IMG/VR virus record: IMGVR_UViG_3300021364_000011
From: an uncultured virus (IMG/VR IMGVR_UViG_3300021364_000011)
Taxonomy: Duplodnaviria; Heunggongvirae; Uroviricota; Caudoviricetes
Length of the DNA: 64,000 nucleotides
Direction: 5' to 3' (one strand)
Positions 6,120 through 34,487 of the stretch are shown here, one piece after another. Under the pieces are notes generated by a model. It saw nothing but the letters and a program-made list of their open reading frames with translations, ran no database searches and was not told the origin of the DNA. The position numbers and the translations under genes were made by a program. The first letter of the stretch is position 1; each line of letters begins with the position of its first letter.

Positions 6120-6962
6120 TTATTTGTTTCTATTCTTATTTATTGATTGTCTTGCCAGTTGAGCTATTCTCTTTTGATGTGCTTTTTGTTTTGACTGTTC
6201 TTTCTTTCTTAATTTATCTGCAAGTCTTTCTTCACCCATAGCGAGTGTTGATAATTGATTGATAATAATTTGTAGTGTGCTTGGACTCATTGTCGATAAC
6301 ACTTGCATCTGTTGTTTAGTTAAACCTTTAACTTTTCTCAATGCTTTTTTGACATCTACTGCTTCTGTTAATTCGTCACCCATTTTTAGAAATAGAGTTC
6401 CTTTCTTTTGTTTCTTATCTGAAACAGTCATACCTGCCATTCTAGCAAACTGATTGATTAGACCAACACCATCAGAAGGTCTCTTAGAATACATGTTTTC
6501 CATTTTCTTTTGTAATTCTTTTGCAACTGTTTTTATGATTTGATGTGCAGGTGCAACCATTCTACCTTCTTCGACATAATACTTAGAATCTTCTGGATTA
6601 GGTAGAGTATCTTCTGGAACACAATTAGGAACCATTTTGTTTCCTTTCTTTTTCATACCAACTTTCTTATAACCATCCCAACATGCCTCATTTGCATCGT
6701 CTTCGCCAAACATCTTCTGATACTTCTTAGTATGTTTAGAAGGTTTAGTCTTTGCACCTGCATCACCTGGTGCTGGTTTGTATGCATTTGGGTTGTCATC
6801 ATCCATACTTGCACCCTTTTTAAAGTGTGCATCTCTAGCGCTCTTTTTATCTTTATCGACACCTTTGTAGTATTTCTTAGGTTGTGTTCCTTTCTTATCG
6901 TCTACATCGGGGTCTTGAGCGACTCTTCTAAGTTTTTCTCTGAGTTGTGTTAATCTATCCAT
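6120..6962 (-). CDS. Hypothetical modular protein, probable head-associated
   Basis: 280 aa; EACWDGY..GMKKK..VPNCV module common in marine T4-like phages. Confidence 0.6.
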   Translation of the reverse strand: MDRLTQLREKLRRVAQDPDVDDKKGTQPKKYYKGVDKDKKSARDAHFKKGASMDDDNPNAYKPAPGDAGAKTKPSKHTKKYQKMFGEDDANEACWDGYKKVGMKKKGNKMVPNCVPEDTLPNPEDSKYYVEEGRMVAPAHQIIKTVAKELQKKMENMYSKRPSDGVGLINQFARMAGMTVSDKKQKKGTLFLKMGDELTEAVDVKKALRKVKGLTKQQMQVLSTMSPSTLQIIINQLSTLAMGEERLADKLRKKEQSKQKAHQKRIAQLARQSINKNRNK

Positions 6963-8278
6963 GACTCTTTTAATTTAGTATTTCTTTTTGATTTATATAA
7001 TAGTTCTTGTTCTTTCCATTGAATCGCTTTTGTATTGCCAGGAAATTGTGAAGACCAAGACATAAGTTTTCCGTATAATCTATTTGCTTTATTATCTAGT
7101 TCTTTTATACCCTCGTCATTCTTAATCTCTACGAAATCTTTTCCGAATATCTTTTTATATTCGTTTGCGTTCTTTTGTGCTTTGTCCCAATCTTTCTGAA
7201 CAATTTGAGGTGGGAGTTTTCTTGTTCTCATCTCATTTCTTTTTTGTGCATTGTTCAATGATGCGTTAACGAAGACCATTTTGTATTCATACCCTATGTT
7301 ATCTAACATCTTCTTATACTTCTTAATCTTACTTGAATCAGCAGATGTTGTATCGAATATCAAACCTAATCTACCGTCTAAGTATGCATCTAAGTTCTTT
7401 GAGGTGATTGCTTTCGCCTTTGCACGAATTGGGTCAACTTTAGTAAAGTCTGCCTTTCTAAGGTCAAGTGTAAGACCTGCCTTCTTCAACCCATTCTCAA
7501 ATGCTTTATCAGTGTTGACCATTTTCAACCCTAATGCTGGCAGTGCAAGTTTCTTTACAACTGTAGATTTACCTGAACCTGGACCACCTGATAAGAATAC
7601 TGCTTTAAATACACCTGGGTCATATACACCCTCTGTAATTAAATCTTCTATCATGTAATCAGGTAGTTCACCCTCTTCCATGATACCCATTTCTTTACGA
7701 ACTATCTTGTATAGTTTTTCTGCATCTGTTTTATTCTTTGTAGGGACACCTGAGATAAACCCTTTCATGTCACCTTTCTCTGCAAATGCTCTCATCTTAC
7801 TTGCTGACATACCATCTACGCCATCTGATTCGGGGTCTCTCTCACCAGCACTGATAATTTCTATGTTATCGAACTTATAGAAACCATGTCTTGCTTTGAC
7901 TGAGTTGTATTTCTTAATGAGTGTATCGAATTCTCTGATTCTATCTGACCCAACAACCATTGCAATTTCTTTATATCCTTGTCTGTATAATTCATTACAG
8001 ATATCGAATACTGTTCTTGCATTAGCATTTGGCACTGCAACCTGTTTACCAAAAAACTTTTTAAGATACATTGTTTTTTGTTTGTGATTCAGTGGGTTCT
8101 TTTTCTTGTCGTTTGAATGTGATGTAAAGAGTAATGCATCACCCTTTAATTGTTTTGAAACTTTCTGTAGTCTGTTTACAAGTTTAGCATGACCTGTTGT
8201 AGGGGGATTGAAACGACCAAAAGTAAAGACTGCTTTTTTGCCCTTTGCTTCTGATAAAAATGCGTTAAATGATTTCAT
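6950..8278 (-). CDS. Cytidylyltransferase-like (HIGH-fold) nucleotidyltransferase fused to P-loop (zeta-toxin/PNK-like) kinase
   Basis: FGRFNPPTTGH, VVGSDR, MSASKMR; then GGPGSGKST and LIFDTT; start taken at MKSFNAF. Confidence 0.75.
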   Translation of the reverse strand: MKSFNAFLSEAKGKKAVFTFGRFNPPTTGHAKLVNRLQKVSKQLKGDALLFTSHSNDKKKNPLNHKQKTMYLKKFFGKQVAVPNANARTVFDICNELYRQGYKEIAMVVGSDRIREFDTLIKKYNSVKARHGFYKFDNIEIISAGERDPESDGVDGMSASKMRAFAEKGDMKGFISGVPTKNKTDAEKLYKIVRKEMGIMEEGELPDYMIEDLITEGVYDPGVFKAVFLSGGPGSGKSTVVKKLALPALGLKMVNTDKAFENGLKKAGLTLDLRKADFTKVDPIRAKAKAITSKNLDAYLDGRLGLIFDTTSADSSKIKKYKKMLDNIGYEYKMVFVNASLNNAQKRNEMRTRKLPPQIVQKDWDKAQKNANEYKKIFGKDFVEIKNDEGIKELDNKANRLYGKLMSWSSQFPGNTKAIQWKEQELLYKSKRNTKLKESWID

Positions 8279-9486
8279 TATTTGTCCCAATTCTTTGCTA
8301 CTGTAAAGTTATTTAGTGAAAACTCCATACGGTCTACGAGTTTAACTGCTTTACCTGTTTTATCAATCGCAACATAACCTTCTGGATTTACAGTCTTAAA
8401 TCCATTGTCTGTTTTTACAAATGTTCCGATTGCTTTTGTTCTATTTAAACCTTTGATAATTACTTGTTTTGCATCTACAAGATTAGTCTGAAATACACCC
8501 AATGCAGTAATCATCTTCTTCAAACCTCTTATTTCTCTGATTACTTGTTCTTTGAGTTGTCTCTTTTGTTCTTTAGTCTTTTCCATTTTAACTTTGGCGA
8601 TTACTTTATCATCAAAGTATTTACTGACATGATTGAGATACTCATTATATGAAGGATTGAATCGTGCATTTCTTACTAGACTGTTCATATAAGTCTTGTA
8701 GGTAGCACCTGGCGCTTTTGTAGATAACATTTCATTGACTTTTCTGAACTTAGTTAAATCATTTTTAGTTATTTGTCTGAATGTTTTACCGACTGTTGAT
8801 AATGATTTAGTCACTAACACAGTTTCTTTTGCAGTCAATGTAGAATTACCTGATACATCTTTATAAGTTGCATCGTCCATCCAAATATCTCTACTAGAAC
8901 CTAAACTTGAAATATCAGCACCAAAACTGGCGGACAAGTCGGCAATCGCACCACCAGTGTATGTGGTGTGCCAAACGATACCATACTTCGCCTGGTCGAT
9001 TGCTTGTCCTAATTGAGATGATGCCATAGCGGCATACATGATAGTGTTAGGTTGAAAAGTAATATAGTCAACACCACCTATCTTCTTTGATTTCTTATCT
9101 GATTCAGTGAACATCAAGTCACCTTGAAGTATCTTATCACCCCATGATAACTTTGATAGAAATCTATACGACTCTAAGAATTTCTTTTCTAAATCACCTG
9201 ATAGTTCTGATGCGTTCTTAATTTCTTGTTCTGAGGTGTAGAACAAAGGTTCTTTATTGAATAGTGATTTCTTTGCGACAAAGAATCTGCCGTCTTCTGG
9301 ATTCTTACCTGCCCATATAGCAGGTGCGCCATCCCATTTAACAGTCATGTTTACTTGTTTGGGTGAATTACCTTTCATCATATCTCTGAGAGATTGTAGA
9401 AAGTTTATAGATGCACGACCACCATCAATACCATTGTTGATGATTTCGTCTTCTAAGTGTTCTAAATGTAGATTTTTGACTGCCAT
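8278..9486 (-). CDS. DUF6267-like protein with ligase-type nucleotidyltransferase motifs
   Basis: HLEHLED, TVKWDGAP, QGDLMF, EGYV, KLVDR. Confidence 0.6.
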   Translation of the reverse strand: MAVKNLHLEHLEDEIINNGIDGGRASINFLQSLRDMMKGNSPKQVNMTVKWDGAPAIWAGKNPEDGRFFVAKKSLFNKEPLFYTSEQEIKNASELSGDLEKKFLESYRFLSKLSWGDKILQGDLMFTESDKKSKKIGGVDYITFQPNTIMYAAMASSQLGQAIDQAKYGIVWHTTYTGGAIADLSASFGADISSLGSSRDIWMDDATYKDVSGNSTLTAKETVLVTKSLSTVGKTFRQITKNDLTKFRKVNEMLSTKAPGATYKTYMNSLVRNARFNPSYNEYLNHVSKYFDDKVIAKVKMEKTKEQKRQLKEQVIREIRGLKKMITALGVFQTNLVDAKQVIIKGLNRTKAIGTFVKTDNGFKTVNPEGYVAIDKTGKAVKLVDRMEFSLNNFTVAKNWDK

Positions 9487-12041: not shown

Positions 12042-12118
12042 TGGCGTCCCTGGCAAGACTCGAACTTGCAACCTACTGCTTAGAAGGCAGTTGCTCTATC
12101 CTGTTGAGCTACAGAGAC
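12042..12118 (-). tRNA. tRNA-Arg(UCU)
   Basis: Cloverleaf; anticodon arm ACTGC-CTTCTAA-GCAGT; GTTCGA T-loop; encoded CCA. Confidence 0.95.
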
Positions 12119-12232: not shown

Positions 12233-12628
12233 TCATAGAAAAAACTCTTTGTCTCTTGGAACATTGTGTAGTTTAGCGTATACTAAACTGTCATTAGTTT
12301 CTTTGAATAACTCTAGCGCCAAATCAGCAGCACAGGCATCATCGTATGATTTACCGCCTATGTTCCATTGTGTTTCAGCATAATCATCATTAAGATTTCT
12401 TGCAAAATGCCAATCATATAAAGTAAATGTTCCATACTTTGAATCGCCATTATCATCATGAACTTGATAATCAATACAGAAATCTGTTGATATCTTATCA
12501 CCGATGCCCTCGAACCAAGGGTCACCGAACATTGTTTTTAAATCGTTAGTCGAAGCAAAGAGATAACTTTGCTTCGAAGTGCCTGCACCACCATCAGTGC
12601 AAGGTATAAATTGTATTGTTTGCGCCAT
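12233..12628 (-). CDS. Hypothetical early protein
   Basis: 131-aa ORF, AGGAG SD. Confidence 0.6.
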   Translation of the reverse strand: MAQTIQFIPCTDGGAGTSKQSYLFASTNDLKTMFGDPWFEGIGDKISTDFCIDYQVHDDNGDSKYGTFTLYDWHFARNLNDDYAETQWNIGGKSYDDACAADLALELFKETNDSLVYAKLHNVPRDKEFFL

Positions 12629-13086
12629 TAAAAATCTCCTTCAGCAACTTGAACTACAGTAAAACCTTTCGCTCTCCACATGTCGACAACTTTTTGTCTA
12701 TCATCGAAGATTAAATCAATCTTACCACCCATTTCGATAAACTTATCAGCAAGTTTAGACTTGAACTCATCATCAGGAGTGAAGTCGTCATTAGGTCTCA
12801 AAAAGACACCTTTATGACCCTCGCCAATCCATTCTCTAATCTGTCTCTCAGTGACTTCTCTTTCTGACTCATTTCTAGCAGAGAAGAAAGCAACTTCATC
12901 ACCTTGAGCAATAAATCTTTTTGCGATATCACAAACCCATTGAACAGGAGTATCATCTTCTGTTGCTTTTCTAAAAGCATTCCAATCAGGTTTGAAACCC
13001 TTATCGCCATTTACAAGATGTCTTCTATGCTCAACATCAGCGATAGTGCCGTCTACATCAAAAATTATTGTTTGTTTTTTCATCAT
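12628..13086 (-). CDS. HAD-family phosphatase (PseT/PNK 3'-phosphatase-like domain)
   Basis: IIFDVDGT, FFSAR, IFDDRQKVVDMWR..G..V.QVAEGDF. Confidence 0.8.
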   Translation of the reverse strand: MMKKQTIIFDVDGTIADVEHRRHLVNGDKGFKPDWNAFRKATEDDTPVQWVCDIAKRFIAQGDEVAFFSARNESEREVTERQIREWIGEGHKGVFLRPNDDFTPDDEFKSKLADKFIEMGGKIDLIFDDRQKVVDMWRAKGFTVVQVAEGDF

Positions 13087-13920: not shown

Positions 13921-14010
13921 TGGCGGAGAGGGTGGGATTTGAACCCACGATACGATTTCTCGTATGCTGGTTTTCAAGACCAGTGCATTCAACCACTCTG
14001 CCACCTCTCC
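13921..14010 (-). tRNA. tRNA-Ser(UGA)
   Basis: Cloverleaf with long variable arm; CTGGT-CTTGAAA-ACCAG; CCA. Confidence 0.95.
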
Positions 14011-14016
14011 GAAAAA

Positions 14017-14092
14017 TGGTGGAGCTAAAGAGATTCGAACTCTTGACCTCCGCCGTGCAAAGGCGGCGCTCTCCCAACTGAGCTATAGCCCC
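14017..14092 (-). tRNA. tRNA-Ala(UGC)
   Basis: GGGGCTATAGCTCAG...; CCGCC-TTTGCAC-GGCGG; CCA. Confidence 0.95.
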
Positions 14093-14094
14093 AC

Positions 14095-14169
14095 TGGCAC
14101 CCTGTAGGAGAATCGAACTCCTGTTGCATGGATGAAAACCATGTGTCCTAACCACTAGACGAACAGGGC
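14095..14169 (-). tRNA. tRNA-Glu(UUC)
   Basis: CATGG-TTTTCAT-CCATG anticodon arm; GTTCGA; CCA. Confidence 0.93.
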
Positions 14170-14170
14170 A

Positions 14171-15448
14171 TTATCTTCCAACTTCTCCAAGATACTTTTG
14201 TTTAGTTTCTTCCCATGACATACTTATAACATCATCATAGAAGAGAGTTGTATCTAATGAAGTTCTCTGATTGTTAACTAAATTTGTAATTCTTTTTCTA
14301 GCGTATCTTTCTTTCCAAAGATTTGTTAGACCCTCTACTGAGGTGTCGAATGACTTAACTAACTTATCTTCTTCTATTTCACCTCTAAGATATTCTCTAC
14401 TGTTATCATAGAATGTAGAGAAGTATATACCTCTTTGATGTTCTGACTTAATAATCTCTTTTGGTATATCTAACTTAGAATACATGAATTGTCTCATACG
14501 ATTTCTATGGTCTCTCTTTAATGTTTGACCATTCTCTCTCTTCGCAACATACAGTAAAAAGTATCTCTCGTTATAATGATGTTCAGCGTAGTCGAGCATC
14601 GCTCGTTCAGTATCTTTGGAAATCTCGAATGATAGAGACCCTTTACTGAATCCCATTTTCTTCCAATGTTTCAATCTATCGTATTGTGATAGATGATTTG
14701 CTTTTGATTTACCATAGAGAGATGTAGTTGTCATTGACACCAAGGTGTCTCCATAGTTTTCTTTCCATTGATTCTGAACTTCATCTGCAAGACAAAGTAA
14801 AGCAAGTAGTTTACCACCTGTGTAATTAAACCCTAGAGGTTGAGTTGGTAGAATACTAGAACCGATTGCTGTGCAATTTAGTTTACCACTGTTAGTTTTG
14901 TATTCTCTATCCCACCCTATATAGTCATCTCTTGGAGTAAGGTCGATAAAATCACCAGTAATACAAATAACGCCAAGATATTTCTCACTAACCTTATCTC
15001 TAATAATGTAATGTAAGTTTCTTCCAATGTTCGAAGAGTTCTTTTGAGTGTGAGTGAAAGTTCGTAAACAATTCCATTTCTCTGTAAGCGTGCCAGCACT
15101 CTGTCTATCTTTCTCCGAATCGGTGTATAATAGTTCTGGTTCAAGTTTCTCAAAATCTTCGTGAGAGTTTGGGAACCATATATTGTTTTTAGTTTCATCG
15201 ATTAACTTCGCATGTTCCTGATTGATTAATTGTGTTTCTTGTCCGAACAATGTTGAAACTGATTGTGTCGGATACTTCATATGAATCTCTTGATACTTCT
15301 GATAGAGTGTATATTCTTCTACACTCATATTACAAACAAGATTCAGGTCTGTAATAATCTTTTGTCTTAGTTCTTCTTTAGATAATATTTCTTTCTCAGT
15401 TCTATTCGCCTGATACTCGTCATATTGTTTTTGAACGAATGGTTCCAT
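14171..15448 (-). CDS. DUF4338 (DruA-like) domain protein
   Basis: GRNLHYIIRD..YLG, RDDYIGW, PTQPLGFNYTGGKLLA, TTSLYG..SQY. Confidence 0.6.
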   Translation of the reverse strand: MEPFVQKQYDEYQANRTEKEILSKEELRQKIITDLNLVCNMSVEEYTLYQKYQEIHMKYPTQSVSTLFGQETQLINQEHAKLIDETKNNIWFPNSHEDFEKLEPELLYTDSEKDRQSAGTLTEKWNCLRTFTHTQKNSSNIGRNLHYIIRDKVSEKYLGVICITGDFIDLTPRDDYIGWDREYKTNSGKLNCTAIGSSILPTQPLGFNYTGGKLLALLCLADEVQNQWKENYGDTLVSMTTTSLYGKSKANHLSQYDRLKHWKKMGFSKGSLSFEISKDTERAMLDYAEHHYNERYFLLYVAKRENGQTLKRDHRNRMRQFMYSKLDIPKEIIKSEHQRGIYFSTFYDNSREYLRGEIEEDKLVKSFDTSVEGLTNLWKERYARKRITNLVNNQRTSLDTTLFYDDVISMSWEETKQKYLGEVGR

Positions 15449-22539: not shown

Positions 22540-22834
22540 TTTCTTTTTCTTCCTTTTTGACTTGTTCTTGTATTAACTCTACAAGAATATCACCCATTAG
22601 ATTATTGAGTTCGGTATTATTTAGTAAATCTTCTATCGCTTCCTCAGAAGGTTCTACGCCTTCTGGTAATTTTCTTATGGTTCTTTTAAAGTTTAGTTCA
22701 GGTTTACCATCTACTAACTGAACATCACCATATTGATATACTAAACCTTTCCATTCAGTATCAACTAATTGAATACCTGCTGTCTCATCATATGGATTCT
22801 CTACAACTATATATGTATTCTTAAACAGGCTCAT
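22499..22834 (-). CDS. Conserved T4-like hypothetical protein
   Basis: WKGLVYQYGDV...MGDILVELI; 111 aa. Confidence 0.6.
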   Translation of the reverse strand: MSLFKNTYIVVENPYDETAGIQLVDTEWKGLVYQYGDVQLVDGKPELNFKRTIRKLPEGVEPSEEAIEDLLNNTELNNLMGDILVELIQEQVKKEEKENEQRDSKRTNQKT

Positions 22835-23585
22835 AGTATCTTAACCTCTCAATATCGTCTTCTGATAAGACTTTTCCGTATTGTATCTCTACAATTCTAC
22901 ATTCTTCATCATATGGGTTTGTAATTTGATGCCATGAACCTCTATGAACTGTCCATGATTCATACTTCTCTAATGTATGAGTTAATACAGGTTCAGGCGA
23001 TGTATCAGAATAATTAATATCACATTTACCTTTTGATACAACCCAAACTTCACCTCTATGTTTATGTTTCTGATAACTCATACCTTGACCAGGTGCAACT
23101 ATGAGTTCTTTTACTTTTACATTTGGGTCTTGAAATAAATCATAGAACTCTCCCCAGCATCTTTCTTCTTTTCTATATTGAAAGTCTTTGAGAATCCATG
23201 ATGATGAATTCTTTTTATCGTCACCACCTACACCAAATCTAAACTCTACACCTCTGACTGACATCTCAGGTATATTTTCTACAGTTCTATCGCCACCATT
23301 ACAGAAGATTACATTTGCATCAGGATTATTTTTCTTCACTATCTCTAAACCATCACAAGCAGTTCCATCTGAATCATCAAACCCTATTACATCATCTACA
23401 ATTTCTAAATGAGATAAGATACACTTTCGTTCTTCGAATGACATGAAGTGTCTACCTTTCTTTTTCGCCAACCAATCATCACTATTAAGTAATACTACAA
23501 GTTGATTACCTTGTTCTTTAGCAGACTTTAAGTATGCAATATGACCTGAATGTAAGGGGTCGAAACCACCTGACACGACCATCAT
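22821..23585 (-). CDS. Cytidylyltransferase-like (TagD/RfaE-like) domain fused to ManC-type cupin
   Basis: SGGFDPLHSGH, FCNGGDR, KKNSSS; C-term ER.WG, VKELIV.PG..MSYQ.H.HR.E.W; start at MMVVSGG. Confidence 0.85.
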   Translation of the reverse strand: MMVVSGGFDPLHSGHIAYLKSAKEQGNQLVVLLNSDDWLAKKKGRHFMSFEERKCILSHLEIVDDVIGFDDSDGTACDGLEIVKKNNPDANVIFCNGGDRTVENIPEMSVRGVEFRFGVGGDDKKNSSSWILKDFQYRKEERCWGEFYDLFQDPNVKVKELIVAPGQGMSYQKHKHRGEVWVVSKGKCDINYSDTSPEPVLTHTLEKYESWTVHRGSWHQITNPYDEECRIVEIQYGKVLSEDDIERLRYYEPV

Positions 23586-23586
23586 A

Positions 23587-24984
23587 TTACCGATGCAATT
23601 CTTTAAACACATAATATTCCTCCTTGCCATGATGTAATACATGAAAATCAGGTAAACTCTTAATATAGTTTCTATACTTTCTGAATGTAATTGATTTACC
23701 CCAACCCATGTAATCTCTAATCTCTCTGATTGATACTTTCTTTTTCTCTTTAATAAACTCTTCTATCTTATCTCTAGCATCTGTATGACTCATCACTTGA
23801 CTATTAGAGTCTAAGGCATCTTGTATTAGTTTTTCAAATCCACTAACCCTATTACGCCAACTATGAACCTGACGACAATGTTCTAATGCAACCTGTGACT
23901 GTTCTAGTCTATACTGATTGTCATCTAGTAATCTTTCAAAATGTTCTACAGCAGTATCGATATCTCTGAAACCTGTTTCTAGATTGCCAAAGATTTCTTT
24001 TGTTTCGTTGCCCACATCATAGACATAAACTACACCTTGACCCAAACCATCTTGCGATGACATTGCCCAACGATTACCTCCATGATAACCTGCAACACAG
24101 GTTCTAAGTTTATGTAAGTAATCTTCTCTGCTTGGTTCGCCACCTAGTTCAAAGAATGATGTATCATCAAAATGTTTTGATAACTTTGTTGTCTGGTCTG
24201 CCATTGTAAACCATACTTTGAAATCTTGTCTTTTATTTCTGAGTCTTTTTATAATCTGTAGAAACTTATCATAACCTCTGTAAGCATGAGTTCTATGATT
24301 GAATACGATTCTCTTCTCAACTTGTTCTACAGGTTTATCAATTATCTTATCATCTTCAAAACCAAGATACACAGGTGTCATTATGTCTTCTAGTTTTTCC
24401 ATTGTCTTTTCACTGTAATGTTCTTCTAGTTCAGACAAGAGTTCTTCTACCTGTGTTTTAGTATTGAACCCACATTTATCCATAGTCAACATACCTGCGA
24501 CATTGTAATGATAGAATGTATGTTTGTTATTTGGGTTGTTCTCTTTGTTCTCTATCCAATGTGAGTAACCAATAACAGGTATATCACTAGAGTATAAATT
24601 CTGTAGATTGTTTACAACATTAACTGTTTGTTCAGGTAGATGTGACCAAACTACATCGTATTCGACATTCAATGTATTGAGAACATCTTTCCAGAAACCT
24701 ATGAAATCATAATGACTTCTCATTGAATTAGGAAATGTCGGTTGGTCAAACAAAGGTTGATTTACATTTGGAAAATCTAATTGTTCACAAAACTTAGGCA
24801 TAGGAATTGTGAAGTATAAATCATCTCTTTTAAGATTTAATTCTCTAATAACATTCATCATAACTAAGACGAATGAATCTTTTTCTAATTCTCGTTGTCT
24901 AGTAATGTTAGGTATAACTAGAATATGATGTTGATTGCCTTTAACTAAGTCAAAATCGAAGTCTTGCAAATCATATAAGTTCAT
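23587..24984 (-). CDS. GT-B glycosyltransferase with C-terminal HTH-like tail
   Basis: DVVWSHLPE, IVFNHR...KFL.II, SREDY..L, SW; 465 aa. Confidence 0.65.
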   Translation of the reverse strand: MNLYDLQDFDFDLVKGNQHHILVIPNITRQRELEKDSFVLVMMNVIRELNLKRDDLYFTIPMPKFCEQLDFPNVNQPLFDQPTFPNSMRSHYDFIGFWKDVLNTLNVEYDVVWSHLPEQTVNVVNNLQNLYSSDIPVIGYSHWIENKENNPNNKHTFYHYNVAGMLTMDKCGFNTKTQVEELLSELEEHYSEKTMEKLEDIMTPVYLGFEDDKIIDKPVEQVEKRIVFNHRTHAYRGYDKFLQIIKRLRNKRQDFKVWFTMADQTTKLSKHFDDTSFFELGGEPSREDYLHKLRTCVAGYHGGNRWAMSSQDGLGQGVVYVYDVGNETKEIFGNLETGFRDIDTAVEHFERLLDDNQYRLEQSQVALEHCRQVHSWRNRVSGFEKLIQDALDSNSQVMSHTDARDKIEEFIKEKKKVSIREIRDYMGWGKSITFRKYRNYIKSLPDFHVLHHGKEEYYVFKELHR

Positions 24985-26108
24985 CGTATGATATCAATAT
25001 CCCTTTTCTTAGACCAAACTTCTAGTTCAGTTCTTAATCTTCCGTCTCTCTGTAGATTCTCATATCTTTTAGAAGCATGTTTCTTCCACCATGCAATCAC
25101 ATTATCAAGTTCAAATCTATCATAGTTGACATTCTTTTCTAACACATCTGTTTCTAGGTTCATATACTCTTTGACATTCTTATAACCATATGTTCCTAGA
25201 TATTGTCTTTTTCTTTCAGTAAGACCTTTTGCATCTAAGAAACATTGTTTAAATGGTTTGATTAAGTCACTGTTATGTTCTTTCAAAGAGTTAGTGATAA
25301 TCTGAATCATTTTGTTTTGTGTCTTTAGTTTCTTAGACGATGCATGTTCTGGAACTAGAGAGTTGCCATTGTTCTGATTCTCAAACCAATCTTTTAGATT
25401 TCTGTAATCGATATCTGCAAGTGAAGGCACAAAATCTGATTCAGTCAACCCTATGAACTTCAAGTAAGGTTTCATACCATCATACATTGATGTAGTCTTT
25501 GATGAACCATACAGTGAAGTAGTTTCGAACATACAAAAGTTTGTATTATATTTAGCGTTCAAAGTTTCCCTTGCATAATGCGAATTGCATATAGCGGCGA
25601 GAAGTTTACCACCAAGATAATTAAAACCAAAAGGTTGTGTAGGGATAATATTAAACCCCATAATAGCAGAGTCATTAAATCTTTTCATAACATCTGCATT
25701 GAGAGTATCTAAAGGTTTACCTAAGAACTCATTACGAGGTTTGCTATTAATAGTAGGACTGCCAAATCGAATAAATCCCACAATCTTATTCGTATTCTTT
25801 TCATATACTACCCACTTTAAAGTTTTACCTGGTATTGAACTTTGGATTATTTGTGATGCAACAATCTCTATGTAATCATCATACACATCTGATTCTCTAC
25901 ATTCAAACTCCATATCATTTGGGTGCATATCAAAGTCTTGAAACATCTCATCTTCTGGACCCATGCCAAAGAGTGGCGTAGGTAATGCATCTATCTTTTC
26001 GAGTTTGAGTTTTCGTAAGTATTCATCGATACGGTCAAAGTTTCCATAGTAATCTATGAAGACCTTGGCGGCGTATTCGGCATTTGATTTAGAAAGTATT
26101 GTAAGCAT
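24981..26108 (-). CDS. DUF4338-like protein, paralog of 14171..15448
   Basis: IPGKTLKW, GFIRFGSP, PTQPFGFNYLGGKLLA, FETTSLYG..SMYDG. Confidence 0.65.
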   Translation of the reverse strand: MLTILSKSNAEYAAKVFIDYYGNFDRIDEYLRKLKLEKIDALPTPLFGMGPEDEMFQDFDMHPNDMEFECRESDVYDDYIEIVASQIIQSSIPGKTLKWVVYEKNTNKIVGFIRFGSPTINSKPRNEFLGKPLDTLNADVMKRFNDSAIMGFNIIPTQPFGFNYLGGKLLAAICNSHYARETLNAKYNTNFCMFETTSLYGSSKTTSMYDGMKPYLKFIGLTESDFVPSLADIDYRNLKDWFENQNNGNSLVPEHASSKKLKTQNKMIQIITNSLKEHNSDLIKPFKQCFLDAKGLTERKRQYLGTYGYKNVKEYMNLETDVLEKNVNYDRFELDNVIAWWKKHASKRYENLQRDGRLRTELEVWSKKRDIDIIR

Positions 26109-26162
26109 AAAAAAACCCAATACCATGATACCACAGTATTGGGTTATTGTCTAGTGACTTTT

Positions 26163-26657
26163 TTAGAGATTCTTTAAGACATTCTCAGGTGTTGAGACTT
26201 CATATGGGTCACCTTCTGCATCCATATCTTCTGCGAATACATGAGTGATTTTCATATCGTCTACAACAATAGCATATCTACTTGACCTTTTACCAAATCC
26301 TAAATCACCTTTGTCTACTAAGAAACCTGCTTTCTTTGTAAACTCTAAGTTTCCGTCAGGAATTGCTTTAACATTTTTAATGTTAAGAGAGTCAAACCAA
26401 GCGTTCATTACAAATGAATCGTTTACTGATAAACAGTAAATGTCATCGATACCTTTCTCTGAGAATTGTGAATACATTTCTTCAAATCCAGGTAATTGTT
26501 TTGTTGAACATGTTGGCGTGAATGCGCCTGGAAGTGCAAATAGAATAACTTTTTTACCTTGCATTTCTGCGTTGGTGTTCAAACCCACAAACTCATCGTT
26601 TACTCTTGTTTGAAACCAAACATCTGGTATTGAATCGCCTACTTTAAATGGTGTCAT
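26163..26657 (-). CDS. Peroxiredoxin (Prx5/redoxin)
   Basis: LPGAFTPTCS..QLPG, SVNDSFVM.AW, PDGN.EF, RS.RYA. Confidence 0.93.
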   Translation of the reverse strand: MTPFKVGDSIPDVWFQTRVNDEFVGLNTNAEMQGKKVILFALPGAFTPTCSTKQLPGFEEMYSQFSEKGIDDIYCLSVNDSFVMNAWFDSLNIKNVKAIPDGNLEFTKKAGFLVDKGDLGFGKRSSRYAIVVDDMKITHVFAEDMDAEGDPYEVSTPENVLKNL

Positions 26658-26679
26658 ATCTGTTTACCTCTTCTAGAAT

Positions 26680-26752
26680 TGGAGCGAGATGCCTGCTTCG
26701 AACAGGCAGCTCTTAACTGGTAGTTAAGCGTTTTGCATTAAACTAATCTCGC
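26680..26752 (-). tRNA. tRNA-Gly(ACC), atypical
   Basis: GCGAGAT/ATCTCGC acceptor, U73, CCA; CTTAA-CTACCAG-TTAAG; GCCTG-TTCGAAG-CAGGC. Confidence 0.85.
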
Positions 26753-26802
26753 AATATTTATATTACTAGAACCCGCTAGAAATTACAAGGGGGTTTTTGA
26801 AA

Positions 26803-27213
26803 TTATTTAATTTTAATTGATACTGGTTTATCTTCTTCTGGAATAACTCTTATCAATTTGACATGTAGAATACCATCTACCATGTCTGCACCCTTAACTT
26901 CAACATCATCTGCAAGTGTAAAACTTCTTTTGAAGGCTCTAGATGCAAGTCCTTTGTGAACAAAATCTTTTGAGTCTTCATCGATTTTACCTTCGATAGT
27001 TAAGAGAGTTTTCTCTTTAGTAATTTCAATATCTTTCTTACCGAATCCTGCAACTGCAAGTTCAATGCAAAAGTTCTCTGCATCTTCCTTTACAATGTTA
27101 TAGGGTGGGTAATTAGTTTGAGTGTGATTAGATAGACGATTGAGTTCGTCAAAGTATCTATCAAATCCAATTGTGAGCGGTCTGAATTGACCAAATATAT
27201 CTAAATGTGTCAT
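26803..27213 (-). CDS. Hsp20 / IbpA-like small heat-shock protein
   Basis: IGFDR, NYPPYNI, IELAVAGF, HKGLA.R.F.RSF.L, A.M.DGIL. Confidence 0.93.
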   Translation of the reverse strand: MTHLDIFGQFRPLTIGFDRYFDELNRLSNHTQTNYPPYNIVKEDAENFCIELAVAGFGKKDIEITKEKTLLTIEGKIDEDSKDFVHKGLASRAFKRSFTLADDVEVKGADMVDGILHVKLIRVIPEEDKPVSIKIK

Positions 27214-28080: not shown

Positions 28081-28686
28081 TTATCTTTTTTTACAAATCT
28101 TTTTTGCTCTATGGGTCACATTTATATTATTTGCAAGAACAAGTGCCATAAATGTATTTGTTCCCCTTATAGATGCTTTGTTTAAATTACCATTTCTCCT
28201 GTCATATTCAATAGCGGGTGTTAATACTGCAACCTTATAAAAAATCATAGTATCAAGCGATGGGTCTTTACCAAAGATTGGGTTTGCTTCTTCTACACAT
28301 TCGTATTTAAGACCATGATATGTTGACCATATGTCTGCGAACTGTAAGAAAACAAATAGTGTCCAGTCTCGATTAGAAGGTGGGTCAATCAGTTCCCAAC
28401 GGTGTGAATATTCGTACCTTTTCGGATTTACCCTTAACAAGTATTCTGTCGACTTCTGTAAATGCTCTTGATGGACAGCATTGATAAGTTCGTTCCGATA
28501 GCAACAAGTCCACCCCATCATAATTTCTTGTTTGTCCTTCGAGTCTAGCTCCAAGGTTGACGGCATCTCCAATGACGGAATAGTCAAATCTAATTTCTGA
28601 CCCCATGTTTCCGACAATACATTCTCCTGTGCTAATGCCGATGCCGACATTAATAGGAGGCAGATTGAGAGGAGATAATTCTTCAT
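28081..28686 (-). CDS. Secreted/membrane protein (DUF5658-like C-terminus) overlapping the cyclase 3' end
   Basis: Signal peptide; LQFADIWST..GL...EANP motif. Confidence 0.55.
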   Translation of the reverse strand: MKNYLLSICLLLMSASALAQENVLSETWGQKLDLTIPSLEMPSTLELDSKDKQEIMMGWTCCYRNELINAVHQEHLQKSTEYLLRVNPKRYEYSHRWELIDPPSNRDWTLFVFLQFADIWSTYHGLKYECVEEANPIFGKDPSLDTMIFYKVAVLTPAIEYDRRNGNLNKASIRGTNTFMALVLANNINVTHRAKKICKKR

Positions 28687-30235
28687 TTAATTGTTTAGTT
28701 GCTTCTAATACTTCTAGAGCGGATTTCACTGCAAGGTCGGCGTGGTCTTCACAATCAAGTGGAGCATTCCAAAATGCCATGATACAATCGCCCATATACT
28801 TATCTATGGTTCCACGGTTATTTATGATAATCTTAGTTTGCACATCTAAGAACTTGTTTATCAGTTCTACTAGACCTTCGGGGTCATCATTGTTTTTATA
28901 TGCTTCTGAGATAGGTGTGAACCCACATATGTCCATAAACATGAATGTCATTTCTTTTCTTTCGCCACCTAGTTTAAGTTTACTTGGGTCTTTCTGTAGT
29001 TCTTCAACCATCTCAGGAGATAAATACTTTTGGAACTGTTTCTTAATTTGTTCTTTGAGTTGATAAGTTGTATAGTATTGATTGAAAGAAGCATGTCCAA
29101 ATACTATTAAGGAACTAATTGATGACCAGAAGGTATCGAAAAGAACGAGTTGCGAAGTCCAAACATAGTATCCCCCACCCAATTGAAGTCCAACAATTCC
29201 TAGACTCACTATCGCCGAAAGCGTTGTGGAGACATTGTAGACCACAATCAATATTCCTAGAAGCACTATCAGAAGAAGAACAATCTCAAGCAATTCAAGA
29301 TAGTAGGATTGTTGTATACGAATGTCTTGCAAGACGGTATGGAGAATTGAGGATTGAACTTCATGGGGATACTTTGCACCCAATGGGGTTGAAATTGGAT
29401 TATTCAGACCTTCCGCAGTCAGACCATAAACAAGAATCTTATTACTAAGATTAGATTCAGGTAAGTCAGCGAAAGAAACTCTGTCAAATTTATTCCAATA
29501 AGATATCATTATATCACTTGTTGGAGTTGTCGAAATGGGAGGTTGTTTTCCCATTCTAATCCACTCTACGCCTAATTCAGGAACTACTCTTGTCTGATAC
29601 GATTGTTGGTCAGTCCATGCTCTGAGAAATTCTAATGCGATTGAAGGATATATTTGTTCGTTAGCAGATACTAATAAAGGTGCTGAACGAATTGTGTTAT
29701 CGAAGTTGGCAGTTCCCATAATCGATGGCGTAGCACTTGTTATTCCGACACCATAGGTGTTCAATTGTAGTATCTCAATTGGTGTTGCGATTCCAGGATA
29801 ACCCCATATACTTTCAGCAATATCACCCCCACCAAAAGTTGTAGTCGGCACATAAGGTGCCTGACCTGTTTGTTTTTGTGTAGTAGGTTGTGAACCCAAT
29901 ATTGTTAATCGATTGACTAATGCTTCAGCGAACTCATCATCTTTGCCGAATCTATCAGGTTCACTAAACACCATTGTAAAGATATGGGTATTTGTTGGGT
30001 CTGTTTCCCATAATACATCTGCGTATACATTTCTAGGAAAAGGAAACTGACCGTGTTTCTCTAGTGACTTCTCATCTATGTCAACTAAAACTATGTTGTC
30101 TACTAAGACTTCTTCTTTTTGTTGATGTAGAAAATCGAACCATGACCATGATATGTTTTCTATGAAGTAAGGATTCCAAATCTTCAACCCAACTAGAAGA
30201 CCAATAGTCCCTAGTACCATTTTCCAATTATACAT
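28385..30235 (-). CDS. CHASE2-domain class III adenylate/guanylate cyclase
   Basis: IVLVDIDEKSL..G.FP.PR (CHASE2); 3 TM helices; FMDICGFT, DKYMGDCIMAFW, DYSVIGDAVNLGARLE, VKGK. Confidence 0.93.
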   Translation of the reverse strand: MYNWKMVLGTIGLLVGLKIWNPYFIENISWSWFDFLHQQKEEVLVDNIVLVDIDEKSLEKHGQFPFPRNVYADVLWETDPTNTHIFTMVFSEPDRFGKDDEFAEALVNRLTILGSQPTTQKQTGQAPYVPTTTFGGGDIAESIWGYPGIATPIEILQLNTYGVGITSATPSIMGTANFDNTIRSAPLLVSANEQIYPSIALEFLRAWTDQQSYQTRVVPELGVEWIRMGKQPPISTTPTSDIMISYWNKFDRVSFADLPESNLSNKILVYGLTAEGLNNPISTPLGAKYPHEVQSSILHTVLQDIRIQQSYYLELLEIVLLLIVLLGILIVVYNVSTTLSAIVSLGIVGLQLGGGYYVWTSQLVLFDTFWSSISSLIVFGHASFNQYYTTYQLKEQIKKQFQKYLSPEMVEELQKDPSKLKLGGERKEMTFMFMDICGFTPISEAYKNNDDPEGLVELINKFLDVQTKIIINNRGTIDKYMGDCIMAFWNAPLDCEDHADLAVKSALEVLEATKQLNEELSPLNLPPINVGIGISTGECIVGNMGSEIRFDYSVIGDAVNLGARLEGQTRNYDGVDLLLSERTYQCCPSRAFTEVDRILVKGKSEKVRIFTPLGTD

Positions 30236-31196: not shown

Positions 31197-32345
31197 TTAG
31201 TTAGATTGATTGATTATAATCTCAATTGAAGGGTCGCCATTACCAAACTCAATGATACCTTGATAACCATCGACATTTGTTTCTAAAATACCTGCACCGC
31301 CAGCGGCGACAACTATTTCTATGACACCATTCACATTACGATAAAAATATATGTCTCCGTCTTGAACAAAGACATTGTATTGTGAATCTTTATTAAATCC
31401 TAATACTGCACCTCTGAGGTTTACATCAAATGTTCCTCCTGATGATGCCTGAACATCTGAAAGTTGAACTGTAGTCTTTTCTAATTCTTCTACAACATCT
31501 AATAAGTCTACGAGAAAGTCAACATCTAATAAATCTATATCTAATTCTGAAAACTCTAGGTCTTCTTCTGTATCTGCAAGAGCATCACCCTCTAGTTCAT
31601 TAAACTCTAAGAAATCTACATCTAAAAGACCTTGGTCATCATACAAATCATCTTGTGCTTGTTCTTCTATTGCTTGTCTGACTTCGTTAGGTGGATTAAC
31701 AATAAACATATTGTCAATCATTGAAGGTGTAATATTACTGATGACTACTGATTTAGTAGGTGGCGAATCTAATGATGACACCATAGTCGCCTGATATGCT
31801 TCAGTAAGTGTTATTGTTCCGCCTTCGTTAGTCACTTCTATTTCTCCTGATGAATCGCCATTTTCATCTGGTAATAATATGACAAGTGACCTTCCTAGTT
31901 CGTCTATGGTTGTTGTAAAATCTGTTCCTTTGATTGATATTTGTGCCGTAGGTGTTGACACTTTGACATTCTTTTTCTTTATCTTACTGCCTTTACCAGA
32001 AGTAAATCTTGCAGTACCTTGAACCATTCGTATTGACATACGAGATAAATCTGGATTGGGGTCGTAATATGCTTCATCAATATAAGCATATGTGTTCTCA
32101 GTCATATCGAGAACTTCATCATCTAAGAAAACGATTTTCATTCTACCGCTTTCTGTTTTCGCTTCGTCTTTAAGTAAGATATCTTTTCCTACTTCGTTTG
32201 TAATTTTTTCTGAATTTCGGGTAAGGAATCCTTCACCACTTGATTCTCTGATATCACCAATGGGGTTGGCGAATGCAACCCCACTGATTAACAAAGTATT
32301 AAGAATCGCTAGACGAATCTTTTTGATTGATTTGAATGACTGCAT
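31197..32345 (-). CDS. FecR-domain periplasmic protein
   Basis: D...T..GRM.I.F.D...., GTARF.SG, V.TPTA.I.IKGTDF, GEIEV.N. Confidence 0.85.
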   Translation of the reverse strand: MQSFKSIKKIRLAILNTLLISGVAFANPIGDIRESSGEGFLTRNSEKITNEVGKDILLKDEAKTESGRMKIVFLDDEVLDMTENTYAYIDEAYYDPNPDLSRMSIRMVQGTARFTSGKGSKIKKKNVKVSTPTAQISIKGTDFTTTIDELGRSLVILLPDENGDSSGEIEVTNEGGTITLTEAYQATMVSSLDSPPTKSVVISNITPSMIDNMFIVNPPNEVRQAIEEQAQDDLYDDQGLLDVDFLEFNELEGDALADTEEDLEFSELDIDLLDVDFLVDLLDVVEELEKTTVQLSDVQASSGGTFDVNLRGAVLGFNKDSQYNVFVQDGDIYFYRNVNGVIEIVVAAGGAGILETNVDGYQGIIEFGNGDPSIEIIINQSN

Positions 32346-33042
32346 TTTCTGAATCAACATCAAGTGTTATGATAGCGTTCGGTGTTGAACAAGCATTACT
32401 TGCCCCACTTACGCATGTGCCTGATATCTGATTGATATCTACATCTGCTGAATCGCCATCTAATGTAAATGTCAATGAGTTTGCACCATCATTTTGTAAT
32501 GTGTTGATATTGTTTGATGAACCATCAATGTCTAGATTCCAAACAATGTCATCTGATTCCCAATCAATGTCAAAGACATTGCTAGTCGAGCCTGATTGTA
32601 AAACTAAGTCGGCATCCAATCTTTCTGCACTTGCTCCAACTTTACCTTGGTCTATATCAAAAGTGTTTGAACTTCCTGTTATAGCAAAGTTAATATTAGA
32701 ACTGTCTGATGAACCTGTCGCACCGATATCCCAATCAAAAATATTGGAATCTCCTGTGACATCTAACTTATAATATGAACTATCTGCTTCTAATGGTCCG
32801 TATAAGATGTTTTGATTTCCGTTGAAATCTAAATCTAATTCGAGTGTAGAACCAGTTATTGTCATAGCAGTTGGAGAAGATGAAAAATCATTCCCTCCTA
32901 TTTTGTTACCAAAACCTACTTGGTCAATATAAAGTTTCAATGTATCACCAACTTGGGTGATTTTTACTTCGTTATCATCAGTGGCTTGTGCGAAAACAAA
33001 TGTTGTCGACATTAGTAATACTAAACTTAAAAGTTTATTCAT
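32299..33042 (-). CDS. Curlin-like beta-solenoid secreted protein
   Basis: Signal peptide; repeated G.SN.F...Q/D units. Confidence 0.65.
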   Translation of the reverse strand: MNKLLSLVLLMSTTFVFAQATDDNEVKITQVGDTLKLYIDQVGFGNKIGGNDFSSSPTAMTITGSTLELDLDFNGNQNILYGPLEADSSYYKLDVTGDSNIFDWDIGATGSSDSSNINFAITGSSNTFDIDQGKVGASAERLDADLVLQSGSTSNVFDIDWESDDIVWNLDIDGSSNNINTLQNDGANSLTFTLDGDSADVDINQISGTCVSGASNACSTPNAIITLDVDSENAVIQINQKDSSSDS

Positions 33043-33988
33043 TTTCGTTATACCCCTCTATTTGCCAGAAACCTCTATCGTGTCCCTGGTATATTAATTC
33101 CAACACGGCAGCTTCTATAGCTGTTCGTGTTGCGTAAGTCACTGACTCATTATTTCCCACCCCATCCTCGATTTCTATGAGTTGAGTTCCTTGTTCTACG
33201 AATCTGAAAACATCTCCGCTAGAACCATAACTCAATACTGTCTTTCGAGTTTGGACATTAAGTAATACTTCTCCAGTGAGAACTGATACAGCTCTCATAG
33301 AGACTGTGACAACATCTTGTTGATATCGTCTTGCGAATCCAATCCCAAGTGTTCTAGCGCCTCGACCACCTGTTTTAATATTGGAATCGTAACCTATAAT
33401 TCCGCCTTCAATAATCATTCCGGCGAATAACAAAGGTTGAACACCTTTTGCTTCAGTGTTAGTTGCCTTTGCATAATCTGTTCTAGCAGAACGAATGATT
33501 TGTCTTTCTCTGACTAAGGCGTCTATACCATTTCGTTCAACTACTCTAAACCATTTTCCTTCACCAGCAGTCTTCAATGCATCGATAACCATCTCGACAC
33601 CACCTTGGGTGACTGCTGTTGAGAAGTCTGCAATACCTTCTCTGTTTTTTCTTTGACCTGTTTTGTCTATAAAATTATAGACTGCTACTATTGGTTTCTC
33701 TTTTGCAGGTGGCAATTGCATAAGTTCAATGTATGAAGGAAGTTTAACTACTTCTGGACCTTCTACACAAATATATTTTCTTGCCATTGTTTTTTTATAA
33801 CCAACATATCCTTGTTTAACTACTGTAAACAAATCATCATTTAAGATACCGTCATTATCAACATCTGTATTAAATCCTTGTGAATATACACCAGCTAAAT
33901 CATTACAATCTTGAGGATTATCAGACCATCTTGGAACTGATGCACACCCTTGTAATAAAATAACTAATGCAAGTAGATACTTAGCCAT
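33035..33988 (-). CDS. csgG: Curli secretion channel CsgG (lipoprotein)
   Basis: Lipobox LQGC; VAVYNF.DKTGQRK, FSTAVTQG, WF.VVER..L.RERQIIR, EGGIIGYD. Confidence 0.92.
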   Translation of the reverse strand: MAKYLLALVILLQGCASVPRWSDNPQDCNDLAGVYSQGFNTDVDNDGILNDDLFTVVKQGYVGYKKTMARKYICVEGPEVVKLPSYIELMQLPPAKEKPIVAVYNFIDKTGQRKNREGIADFSTAVTQGGVEMVIDALKTAGEGKWFRVVERNGIDALVRERQIIRSARTDYAKATNTEAKGVQPLLFAGMIIEGGIIGYDSNIKTGGRGARTLGIGFARRYQQDVVTVSMRAVSVLTGEVLLNVQTRKTVLSYGSSGDVFRFVEQGTQLIEIEDGVGNNESVTYATRTAIEAAVLELIYQGHDRGFWQIEGYNENE

Positions 33989-34487
33989 CGCCGTCACCAC
34001 CGCCTGTATCGGGGTCTTGTCCAAAGTTTCCTGTTCCGACTGGAATTTCTATAACTGTTGTTGTTCCTTCGGTATCAACAATAGTCATCTTTATAAAATC
34101 AGTTCCGTCTTCACCTGTTATAACTTCCCATGTTATTGTGCTTCCTTCTAATACAAACGAACCGAAATTAGATGCAGTGTCATTACTAAACATTGATTCA
34201 ACTAATTGTTTAGATAGCTGTGCATAGATTCTGCTTTCTAGGTTCCTAATAAATTTTGCAAGTGTAGTGTTATCTGCTTCTCTTTCAGCAGCCTTTCTTG
34301 CAGACTCCAATGCGTCTTCTATTGCTTTCTTACGGCTGGACTCTTGGTTCTCAATTGTAAGATAATGAGCACCCGTTCCGATACCTGAGAATGAAGGGTT
34401 TTTAAACTTGTGAACTATCTCCGTTCCGTGAACTTGGAATGATAGTAAAATTGAAATAAAACAAATTGGTAAAATATATTTAATCAT
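33981..34487 (-). CDS. csgF: Curli assembly component CsgF
   Basis: Signal peptide; FKNPSFSG; F...LESRIYAQLS.QL; T.IEIP. Confidence 0.85.
   Translation of the reverse strand: MIKYILPICFISILLSFQVHGTEIVHKFKNPSFSGIGTGAHYLTIENQESSRKKAIEDALESARKAAEREADNTTLAKFIRNLESRIYAQLSKQLVESMFSNDTASNFGSFVLEGSTITWEVITGEDGTDFIKMTIVDTEGTTTVIEIPVGTGNFGQDPDTGGGDGDG

Follow-up and report, generated by a model that had tools for sequence, protein, structure and literature searches.

The gene considered here is a transfer RNA (tRNA) gene for glycine with the anticodon ACC, located in a 64,000-nucleotide stretch of DNA (hereafter the window) from an uncultured virus of the class Caudoviricetes (IMG/VR record IMGVR_UViG_3300021364_000011). 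This gene, tRNA-Gly(ACC), is 73 nt long, lies on the minus strand at 26680..26752 and includes the CCA end; the anticodon occupies 26719..26721, and its first base, A34, is window position 26721. Upstream of it lies an Hsp20 gene (26803..27213, minus strand; Pfam HSP20, E 3.4e-17), ahead of which a promoter scan found an 11/12 sigma-70-like match (27390-27361, minus strand; a consensus match only), so that the tRNA-Gly may be co-transcribed with Hsp20. Downstream follow a peroxiredoxin gene (26163..26657, minus strand; Pfam Redoxin, E 8.4e-28), a terminator-like hairpin (26145-26114, minus strand) and the gene of a 381-residue DruA-like (DUF4338) protein with a GNAT fold (24981..26126, minus strand; PF14236, E 1.1e-8; phrog_19197; AlphaFold (AF2) model), which is a candidate user of Gly-tRNA. 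In addition, a TATAAATA motif ends 2 nt ahead of the tRNA-Gly; it resembles the late promoter of T4-type phages, and it stands too near the mature 5′ end for any claim to be attached to it.

ARAGORN places a tRNA-Gly(acc) at 26680-26752 (minus strand), and the Rfam model RF00005 covers 26683-26752 with 51.5 bits (E 3.9e-8), well beyond the gathering score of 29, so that the gene belongs to the tRNA family. Its minimum free energy fold is a cloverleaf of -24.4 kcal/mol (z -3.57), and none of 200 shuffled sequences was as stable. The acceptor end consists of G1-C72, C2-G71 and G3-C70 with the discriminator U73 and a gene-encoded CCA; the anticodon loop is CUACCAG, in which C32 and G38 are complementary, and the 6-nt D-loop AAUGCA has a single G instead of GG. 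The initial annotation, made from the sequence alone, had described the cloverleaf, the glycine identity elements, both loops and the possible C32-G38 pair, and ARAGORN, Rfam and the fold confirmed all of them. It had also likened the D-loop to that of non-proteinogenic tRNA-Gly. For the window copy this likeness is slight: the T-loop, UUCGAAG, is canonical, and the G left in the D-loop occupies a site where every close relative has G too (AAGGCA, AAAGCA, AAAGAA), which makes the elbow here no more than mildly unusual; strongly deviant elbows do occur in relatives. The bacterial glycyl-tRNA synthetase (GlyRS) recognises U73, G1-C72, C2-G71, G3-C70, C35 and C36. All of these nucleotides are present on inspection of the sequence, from which glycylation of the window tRNA by GlyRS is predicted.

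The anticodon is well supported by independent assemblies, which show ACC at 26719-26721 and not the GCC or TCC that an assembly error would conceal. An identical tRNA-Gly(ACC) occurs on a second IMG/VR contig of 11,772 bp, and the window stretch has been recovered in seawater metagenomes from many studies. Logan contigs from three DNA runs of three studies (X2, X4 and X6) span the gene, and among the differences listed between them and the window none falls within 26449-26838, the anticodon included; one spanning piece has no difference across 594 bases, and of the X6 and X4 pieces the former has none and the latter one, at 26908. Since ACC is unchanged in contigs from three runs and three studies, an assembly error is ruled out, on support that consists of contigs, which drop rare variants. 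Contigs of the metatranscriptome run X16 also cover the tRNA-Gly gene, which is a weak sign given that DNA carry-over is possible, and the increase in depth over the gene in that run derives from contigs and cannot rank expression.

The gene also has relatives. Loci were anchored on the Hsp20 and peroxiredoxin neighbours, and the 142 anchored loci were all searched by regular expression, 120 of them (all but L042-L063) also by ARAGORN. tRNA-Gly(ACC) was found on several diverged contigs and tRNA-Gly(UCC) on few, with bodies of 72-76 nt and differing stems; UCC twins of the ACC tRNA stand in the close relatives L078, L122 and L134. That is to say, the relatives are mostly ACC with a few UCC, and do not carry canonical anticodons only. 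A pattern scan of viral contigs, in which the glycine acceptor end was combined with a YU-ACC-AR loop, gave at least 120 matches; at least 93 of the 120 listed are tRNA-like Gly(ACC) genes by a crude pairing test (at least 6/7 pairs in the acceptor stem, 4/5 in the anticodon stem and 4/5 in the T stem), ARAGORN recognised 48 of the 120, and about a dozen are chance matches in GC-rich coding DNA. The search of viral databases proposed in the initial annotation thus turned up a sizeable family. When base 34 was left free, a sample of 135 phage tRNA-Gly genes had U in 85, G in 45, C in 3 and A in 2, and ACC is therefore a minority form of phage tRNA-Gly, concentrated in particular marine lineages.

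The same pattern was applied to 596 Gb of prokaryote genomes, where only six of the first 120 matches passed the pairing test, as expected from the earlier statement that ACC is essentially unused in bacteria. ARAGORN reported Gly(acc) in six of these 120, an overlapping and not identical set, so that eight loci are recognised by either method and the remainder look like chance. Canonical-looking Gly(ACC) genes were seen in a few assemblies, among them a contig of a Bacteroidales metagenome-assembled genome (L350; JAVBNJ010000142.1, 98-452), one of the recognised loci, where the gene lies within a Thr-Tyr-Gly-Thr array, and a metagenome-assembled genome of Candidatus Woykebacteria (L314). The glycine slot of that array is usually occupied by Gly(UCC) in bacteria. 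The Gly(ACC) genes of prokaryote assemblies could be cellular exceptions or assembly variants. Among the viral contigs there is, separately, a Gly(ACC)-like group with a shortened T arm and the loop region AUGCAAAG (L150, L169, L172, L173 and similar, on contigs of 60-170 kb), which ARAGORN, Rfam at E<=1 and the pairing test all missed; at the same threshold Rfam missed, besides L150, the Mosig-type tRNA described below (L264, L181). An ARAGORN call of Ile(aat) at L040 1316-1391 was considered as a second A34 tRNA and dropped for want of Rfam tRNA support; positions 1260-1589 of this GC-rich viral contig match a permuted transfer-messenger RNA (54.5 bits) and the abiF RNA (37.5 bits).

Two cultured phages belong to the family. 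BLASTN of the window tRNA against GenBank phages gave no close homologue, the best hit being a 75% match to a tRNA-Arg, and the cultured copies were found only with metagenomic relatives as queries. Pelagibacter phage Mosig (MT647606) carries tRNA-Gly(ACC) at 7779-7852 on the minus strand (L264 1501-1574), 97% identical to the metagenomic query and annotated as a 31-codon hypothetical protein; its other tRNAs are Pro, Arg and Leu, with no second tRNA-Gly, and its genome announcement counts three tRNAs. Pelagibacter phage HTVC008M (KC465899) carries an unannotated copy at 91140-91213 on the plus strand (L265 1501-1574), 77% identical to the metagenomic query; with 49.5 bits it is the sole RF00005 match in the 147-kb genome, for which PMC7029224 lists 0 tRNAs. 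Both cultured copies have non-canonical T-loops.

These genes have been maintained as tRNAs. Covariation was followed in 67 distinct family sequences, which were segmented by fixed distances from the ends and the anticodon; since the search patterns prescribed acceptor pairs 1-3, U73, the CCA end and the greater part of the anticodon loop, these are uninformative on conservation. Acceptor pairs 5-7 are paired in 67/67 sequences with 5-6 pair types, the five anticodon-stem pairs in 65-67 with 5-6 types, and T-stem pairs 1-4 in 61-67 with 4-6 types. Such compensatory changes indicate that the family is under selection for tRNA structure. Positions 32 and 38 also co-vary, as U-A in 44 sequences, C-G in 20, A-U in 1 and C-A in 2, counts that come mostly from two main lineages and from patterns that for most sequences allowed only Y32 and R38, with U-G and C-A freely permitted. 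A 32-38 pair capable of Watson-Crick pairing is described as a feature of bacterial tRNA-Gly that tunes ribosomal decoding (Pernod et al., PMC7293025), and the window tRNA has this bacterial type of pair in C32-G38. A transferase reading the acceptor end alone would not need it, and we read the 32-38 covariation as a sign of ribosomal use.

Comparison with known phage genes places the window gene more closely. The elongator tRNA-Gly(UCC) genes of T4-like phages, such as those of Synechococcus phages S-SSM7, S-SM2, S-CAM9, S-H9-1 and S-RIM32, have the same acceptor end (GCG...CGC-U-CCA type), share the loop context around the anticodon and lie in the same neighbourhood of marine T4-like genomes; what distinguishes the window tRNA from them is base 34, which is A. 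Base 34 apart, the window gene is a member of the T4-like phage-encoded elongator tRNA-Gly genes.

Codon use was analysed in the 68 open reading frames (ORFs) of the window, where the 1195 glycine codons comprise 702 GGT (59%), 298 GGA, 108 GGC and 87 GGG. The other window tRNAs match AGA (75% of Arg codons), TCA (45% of Ser), GCA (65% of Ala) and GAA (76% of Glu), which means that each of the five tRNAs pairs with the top codon of its own amino acid; this usage is compatible with an elongator function. In summary, the window tRNA-Gly(ACC) is a real gene, conserved, structurally constrained and matched to codon use. The reading that we consider reasonably probable is that it is a functional phage-encoded elongator tRNA-Gly with an unmodified A34, charged by the host GlyRS. 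Its transcription would take place during infection, perhaps along with that of the Hsp20-peroxiredoxin unit, and the product would be charged by a host GlyRS that reads the acceptor end together with C35 and C36 and not base 34. On the ribosome the unmodified A34 would form a Watson-Crick pair with GGU, the dominant glycine codon of the phage, the remaining GGN codons would probably be read less well, and the gene would in this way add glycine decoding capacity. We infer along these lines the expression and charging of tRNA-Gly(ACC), its lack of inosine and the codons that it reads.

Several published systems speak to this scheme. It has been reported that E. coli tRNA-Gly changed to ACC reads GGU strongly and GGC weakly and competes for GGA and GGG in vitro (Boren 1993, as cited in PMC11066159), and that charging by GlyRS is not specific for base 34 (PMC4928997). 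The tRNA-Gly(ACC) engineered by Boren et al. 1993 and in studies of 2016 and 2026 thus shares the anticodon and is described as charged, unmodified, active in translation and best at reading GGU; these are laboratory mutants, whereas the window tRNA is natural, conserved and widespread in phages. According to PMC11066159, Mycoplasma tRNA-Thr(AGU) and yeast mitochondrial tRNA-Arg(ACG) also keep an unmodified A34 in a four-codon box, in AT-rich systems with few tRNAs; they differ in serving other amino acids and in being cellular or organellar, without competition from a full host tRNA set.

Some observations weigh against this elongator role and are gathered here. The local share of GGT is alike whether ACC is carried (0.51 of 803 codons), UCC is carried (0.53 of 352) or, in other relatives, no local tRNA-Gly is present (0.50-0.55), so codon use accounts neither for the gene being there nor for A34 having been chosen. 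The suggestion of the initial annotation that the tRNA is tailored to GGU fits the GGT excess of the window and its set of tRNAs for top codons. Overexpression of Gly-tRNA(ACC) is stated to have slowed the growth of E. coli (bioRxiv 10.64898/2026.05.15.725136). Of the 93 tRNA-like ACC genes, 45 have T-loops without U54-U55 (GGCAGTA or AGCGTTA), against 0 of 133 phage tRNA-Gly genes with another base 34; such elbows are unusual for ribosomal tRNAs, and the deviant T-loops of the ACC set may represent a single lineage. Finally, among the closest relatives the tRNA-Gly tracks the DruA-like gene and not Hsp20 or peroxiredoxin.

The DruA-like product of 24981-26126 scores 35.1 bits against PF14236 and that of a paralog at 14171-15448 scores 77.2 bits (gathering 27), so both are members of the family. 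The AlphaFold model of the first has a pLDDT of 75.7 and a GNAT core. When this model was aligned with 48,161 chains by VIA-align, the Mom protein of phage Mu (8bv8_B) came first (Z 9.0, root-mean-square deviation 4.0, 164 residues) and FemA was fifth (Z 8.2); generic GNATs at ranks 2-50 (Z 8.4-7.1) are, however, within 1-2 units of Mom. Foldseek returned only GNATs for the model, at E of about 0.01, hhalign of the DruA-like family against Mu Mom found nothing (probability 0.2), neither paralog matched Pfam Mom PF25680 at E<=10, a profile that Mu Mom itself matches with 253 bits, and a sequence search of both proteins against PDB chains gave nothing meaningful. One GenBank record does label a DruA-like homologue 'methylcarbamoylase mom'. 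The neighbour at 24981-26126 is thus modelled as a GNAT-fold protein of the DruA family, whose weak likeness to Mom may serve as a lead only.

It has been considered whether the tRNA mainly or additionally donates glycine to this GNAT, for DNA or another acceptor, in the manner of Mu Mom, with base 34 free to be A or U; we hold this to be unlikely, though not negligibly so. Mu Mom is a phage GNAT that is reported to move glycine from Gly-tRNA(Gly) onto the N6 of adenine in double-stranded DNA, with all three E. coli isoacceptors serving (PMC13219725), and it is the top fold match of the DruA-like protein; Mom requires no special tRNA, Mu encodes no tRNA, and by sequence the window protein is outside the Mom family. 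As for genetic linkage, the DruA-like gene lies 550 bp from the tRNA-Gly, in six loci the tRNA starts 9-11 nt past the DruA-like stop codon, and a tRNA-Gly is present in 16 of 31 anchored loci with a DruA-like gene (12 ACC, 4 UCC) against 4 of 114 without one. Among 21 informative loci whose Hsp20 is at least 89% identical, exactly the three with a DruA-like gene have the tRNA; both are missing from the other 18, five of which (L065, L067, L071, L072, L086) retain a peroxiredoxin match, and in four loci that have peroxiredoxin and lack the DruA-like gene the spacer is a different one, without the tRNA. HTVC008M and Mosig each carry a DruA-like gene 6-8 kb from the tRNA-Gly. The occurrence of A34 and U34 on closely similar tRNA bodies and the confinement of deviant elbows to the ACC set would also suit a donor. 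On the other side, 15 of the 31 DruA-like loci have no tRNA-Gly within the covered flank, and a DruA-like gene is found within the covered flank of only 24 of 104 tRNA-like ACC loci (20 of 71 with long flanks). The DruA-like gene forms with clamp-loader, RegA and Hsp20 genes a block conserved in T4-like marine phages and cyanophages, so that proximity of the tRNA may be merely inherited; all five cultured Synechococcus phages with a DruA-like gene carry an ordinary tRNA-Gly(UCC), which is found in two phages outside the DruA-like list as well; in the window a terminator-like hairpin stands between the tRNA unit and the DruA-like gene; and the covariation of 32 and 38 points toward the ribosome. 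The linkage is real but partial. The non-ribosomal donor role raised in the initial annotation has gained a candidate partner in the DruA-like GNAT and stays hypothetical. In its widest form it would mean that marine T4-like phages encode a non-proteinogenic glycine tRNA (ACC, sometimes UCC, its elbow often rewired) that feeds a DruA/Mom-like GNAT, which we think improbable; that the glycine would then pass to the adjacent glycosyltransferase-like and sugar-nucleotide genes, the phage DNA being hypermodified and the anticodon kept only for the recognition of C35/C36 by GlyRS, is similarly doubtful. It is also only a tentative idea that the tRNA would be a phage counterpart of the staphylococcal cell-wall tRNA-Gly. 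The staphylococcal non-proteinogenic tRNA-Gly, used by Fem transferases, lacks G18-G19 and the T-loop U54-U55-C56 and has a UCC anticodon. The parallel lies in a glycine tRNA near the gene of a GNAT-fold enzyme that has FemA among its fold matches; the window copy, which has one D-loop G, differs in having ACC and a canonical T-loop, the likeness is loose, and its neighbour is only a candidate transferase.

Returning to the elongator role, three further explanations compete with it, each with much less in its favour. If A34 were converted to inosine by the host TadA or a phage enzyme, the anticodon ICC would read GGU, GGC and GGA, that is, 1108 of the 1195 glycine codons of the window (93%), and the use of I34 is stated to have widened in some bacteria (PMC11066159). 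The same source, however, describes E. coli TadA as very specific for the tRNA-Arg2 loop, having modified 3 of 15 tested ANN anticodons; the window loop, with the anticodon ACC and G at 38, is unlike the tRNA-Arg2 (ACG) loop, tRNA-Gly(ACC) is described as a poor substrate of TadA and ADAT (PMC4928997; bioRxiv 10.64898/2026.05.15.725136), and no deaminase family appears at E<=1e-5 among the 68 ORFs of the window, which is part of a genome. tRNA-Gly(ACC) is thus not likely to be a TadA substrate, and we give inosine very little credence. Much the same holds for the proposal, akin to the evasion of anticodon nucleases suggested in the initial annotation, that the tRNA stands in for host tRNA-Gly, or protects it, when a host defence cleaves or inactivates tRNAs, its altered anticodon and elbow escaping recognition; this we think quite improbable. 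Kinase/phosphatase genes of T4 serve tRNA repair, and the window has polynucleotide kinase/phosphatase-like genes at 12628-13086 and 6950-8278; a toxSAS targeting tRNA-Gly is described in a literature abstract. We know, however, of no tRNA-Gly-specific nuclease for SAR11, no search having been made for one, and the interchange of A34 and U34 in a canonical loop context gives no sign of escape from a particular enzyme. A decaying or non-functional tRNA, or the remnant of an integration site, is hardly credible: the D-loop is short of one usual G and some relatives have deviant T-loops, but all stems are intact, CCA is encoded, compensatory change is extensive over the 67 sequences, runs from several studies show one and the same sequence, and a Pfam scan of the window ORFs found no integrase family.

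The wider context is that of a T4-like marine phage. The window has about 35% G+C, nearly all of its genes are on the minus strand, and it encodes the T4-type portal, capsid, sheath, polymerase, clamp, clamp loader, UvsW/X/Y and RegA. Further genes specify a peptide deformylase and the curli proteins CsgG/CsgF, and a curli cluster is reported in every pelagimyophage group except the freshwater one (PMC7029224). The flanking genes have their closest cultured relatives in Pelagibacter phage HTVC008M and in marine cyanophages, and this combination suggests that the host is probably SAR11. A gene for an adenylate/guanylate cyclase with a CHASE2 sensor also occurs in this phage, beside a FecR-like gene and the CsgG/CsgF curli genes (28385-30235, 31197-34487).

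The stretch from 22821 to 26752 forms a variable island between Hsp20 and a lysozyme gene. It contains the tRNA-Gly, the peroxiredoxin and DruA-like genes, a 465-residue ORF (23587..24984, minus strand) with a weak glycosyltransferase-like match (Pfam Glyco_trans_1_2, E 0.0033, below the cut-off), which travels with the DruA-like gene among relatives according to tblastn synteny, and, at its end, a gene with cytidylyltransferase-like and mannose-6-phosphate isomerase/cupin matches (22821..23642, minus strand; Pfam and island boundaries). By its gene content the island looks like a DNA-modification cassette. The four other tRNA genes, all called by ARAGORN and Rfam on the minus strand, are a tRNA-Glu(UUC), tRNA-Ala(UGC) and tRNA-Ser(UGA) cluster (13921..14169) and tRNA-Arg(UCU) (12042..12118). 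Directly upstream of the cluster lies the second DruA-like paralog (14171..15448, minus strand; 425 residues; PF14236, E 1.5e-21; phrog_19197), which is diverged, with 29% identity to the first, and stops 2 nt before the cluster; both DruA-like genes of the window thus adjoin tRNA genes. The regions 6950-9486 and 12628-13086 hold genes for a polynucleotide-kinase-phosphatase-like HAD protein, a fusion of a cytidyltransferase and a P-loop kinase, and a DUF6267 protein (phrog_455); lying near tRNA genes, they may constitute a set for RNA repair or nucleotide modification.

As for the meaning of the finding, PMC7293025 states that A34 has never been observed for glycine in any kingdom, a preprint of October 2026 calls tRNA-Gly(ACC) 'universally absent' (bioRxiv 10.64898/2026.05.15.725136), and both treat this absence as a puzzle of the genetic code. 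No report of a natural or phage tRNA-Gly(ACC) was found in a literature search that did not extend to subscription journals and supplements, where a mention in a survey is possible. These genes escape standard tRNA finders and published annotations: HTVC008M is credited with 0 tRNAs and Mosig with three, its copy being annotated as a protein. The genes described here are a real, conserved natural exception to the textbook absence of Gly(ACC), and a natural conserved family contradicts the premise of universal absence. Well over ninety viral contigs carry a member, as do two cultured Pelagibacter phages that can be worked with in the laboratory, and the matched ACC/UCC pairs of the family can serve to examine the avoidance of A34 by cells. 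Should the tie to the DruA-like GNAT prove true, no phage-encoded tRNA before this one would have been devoted to DNA modification.

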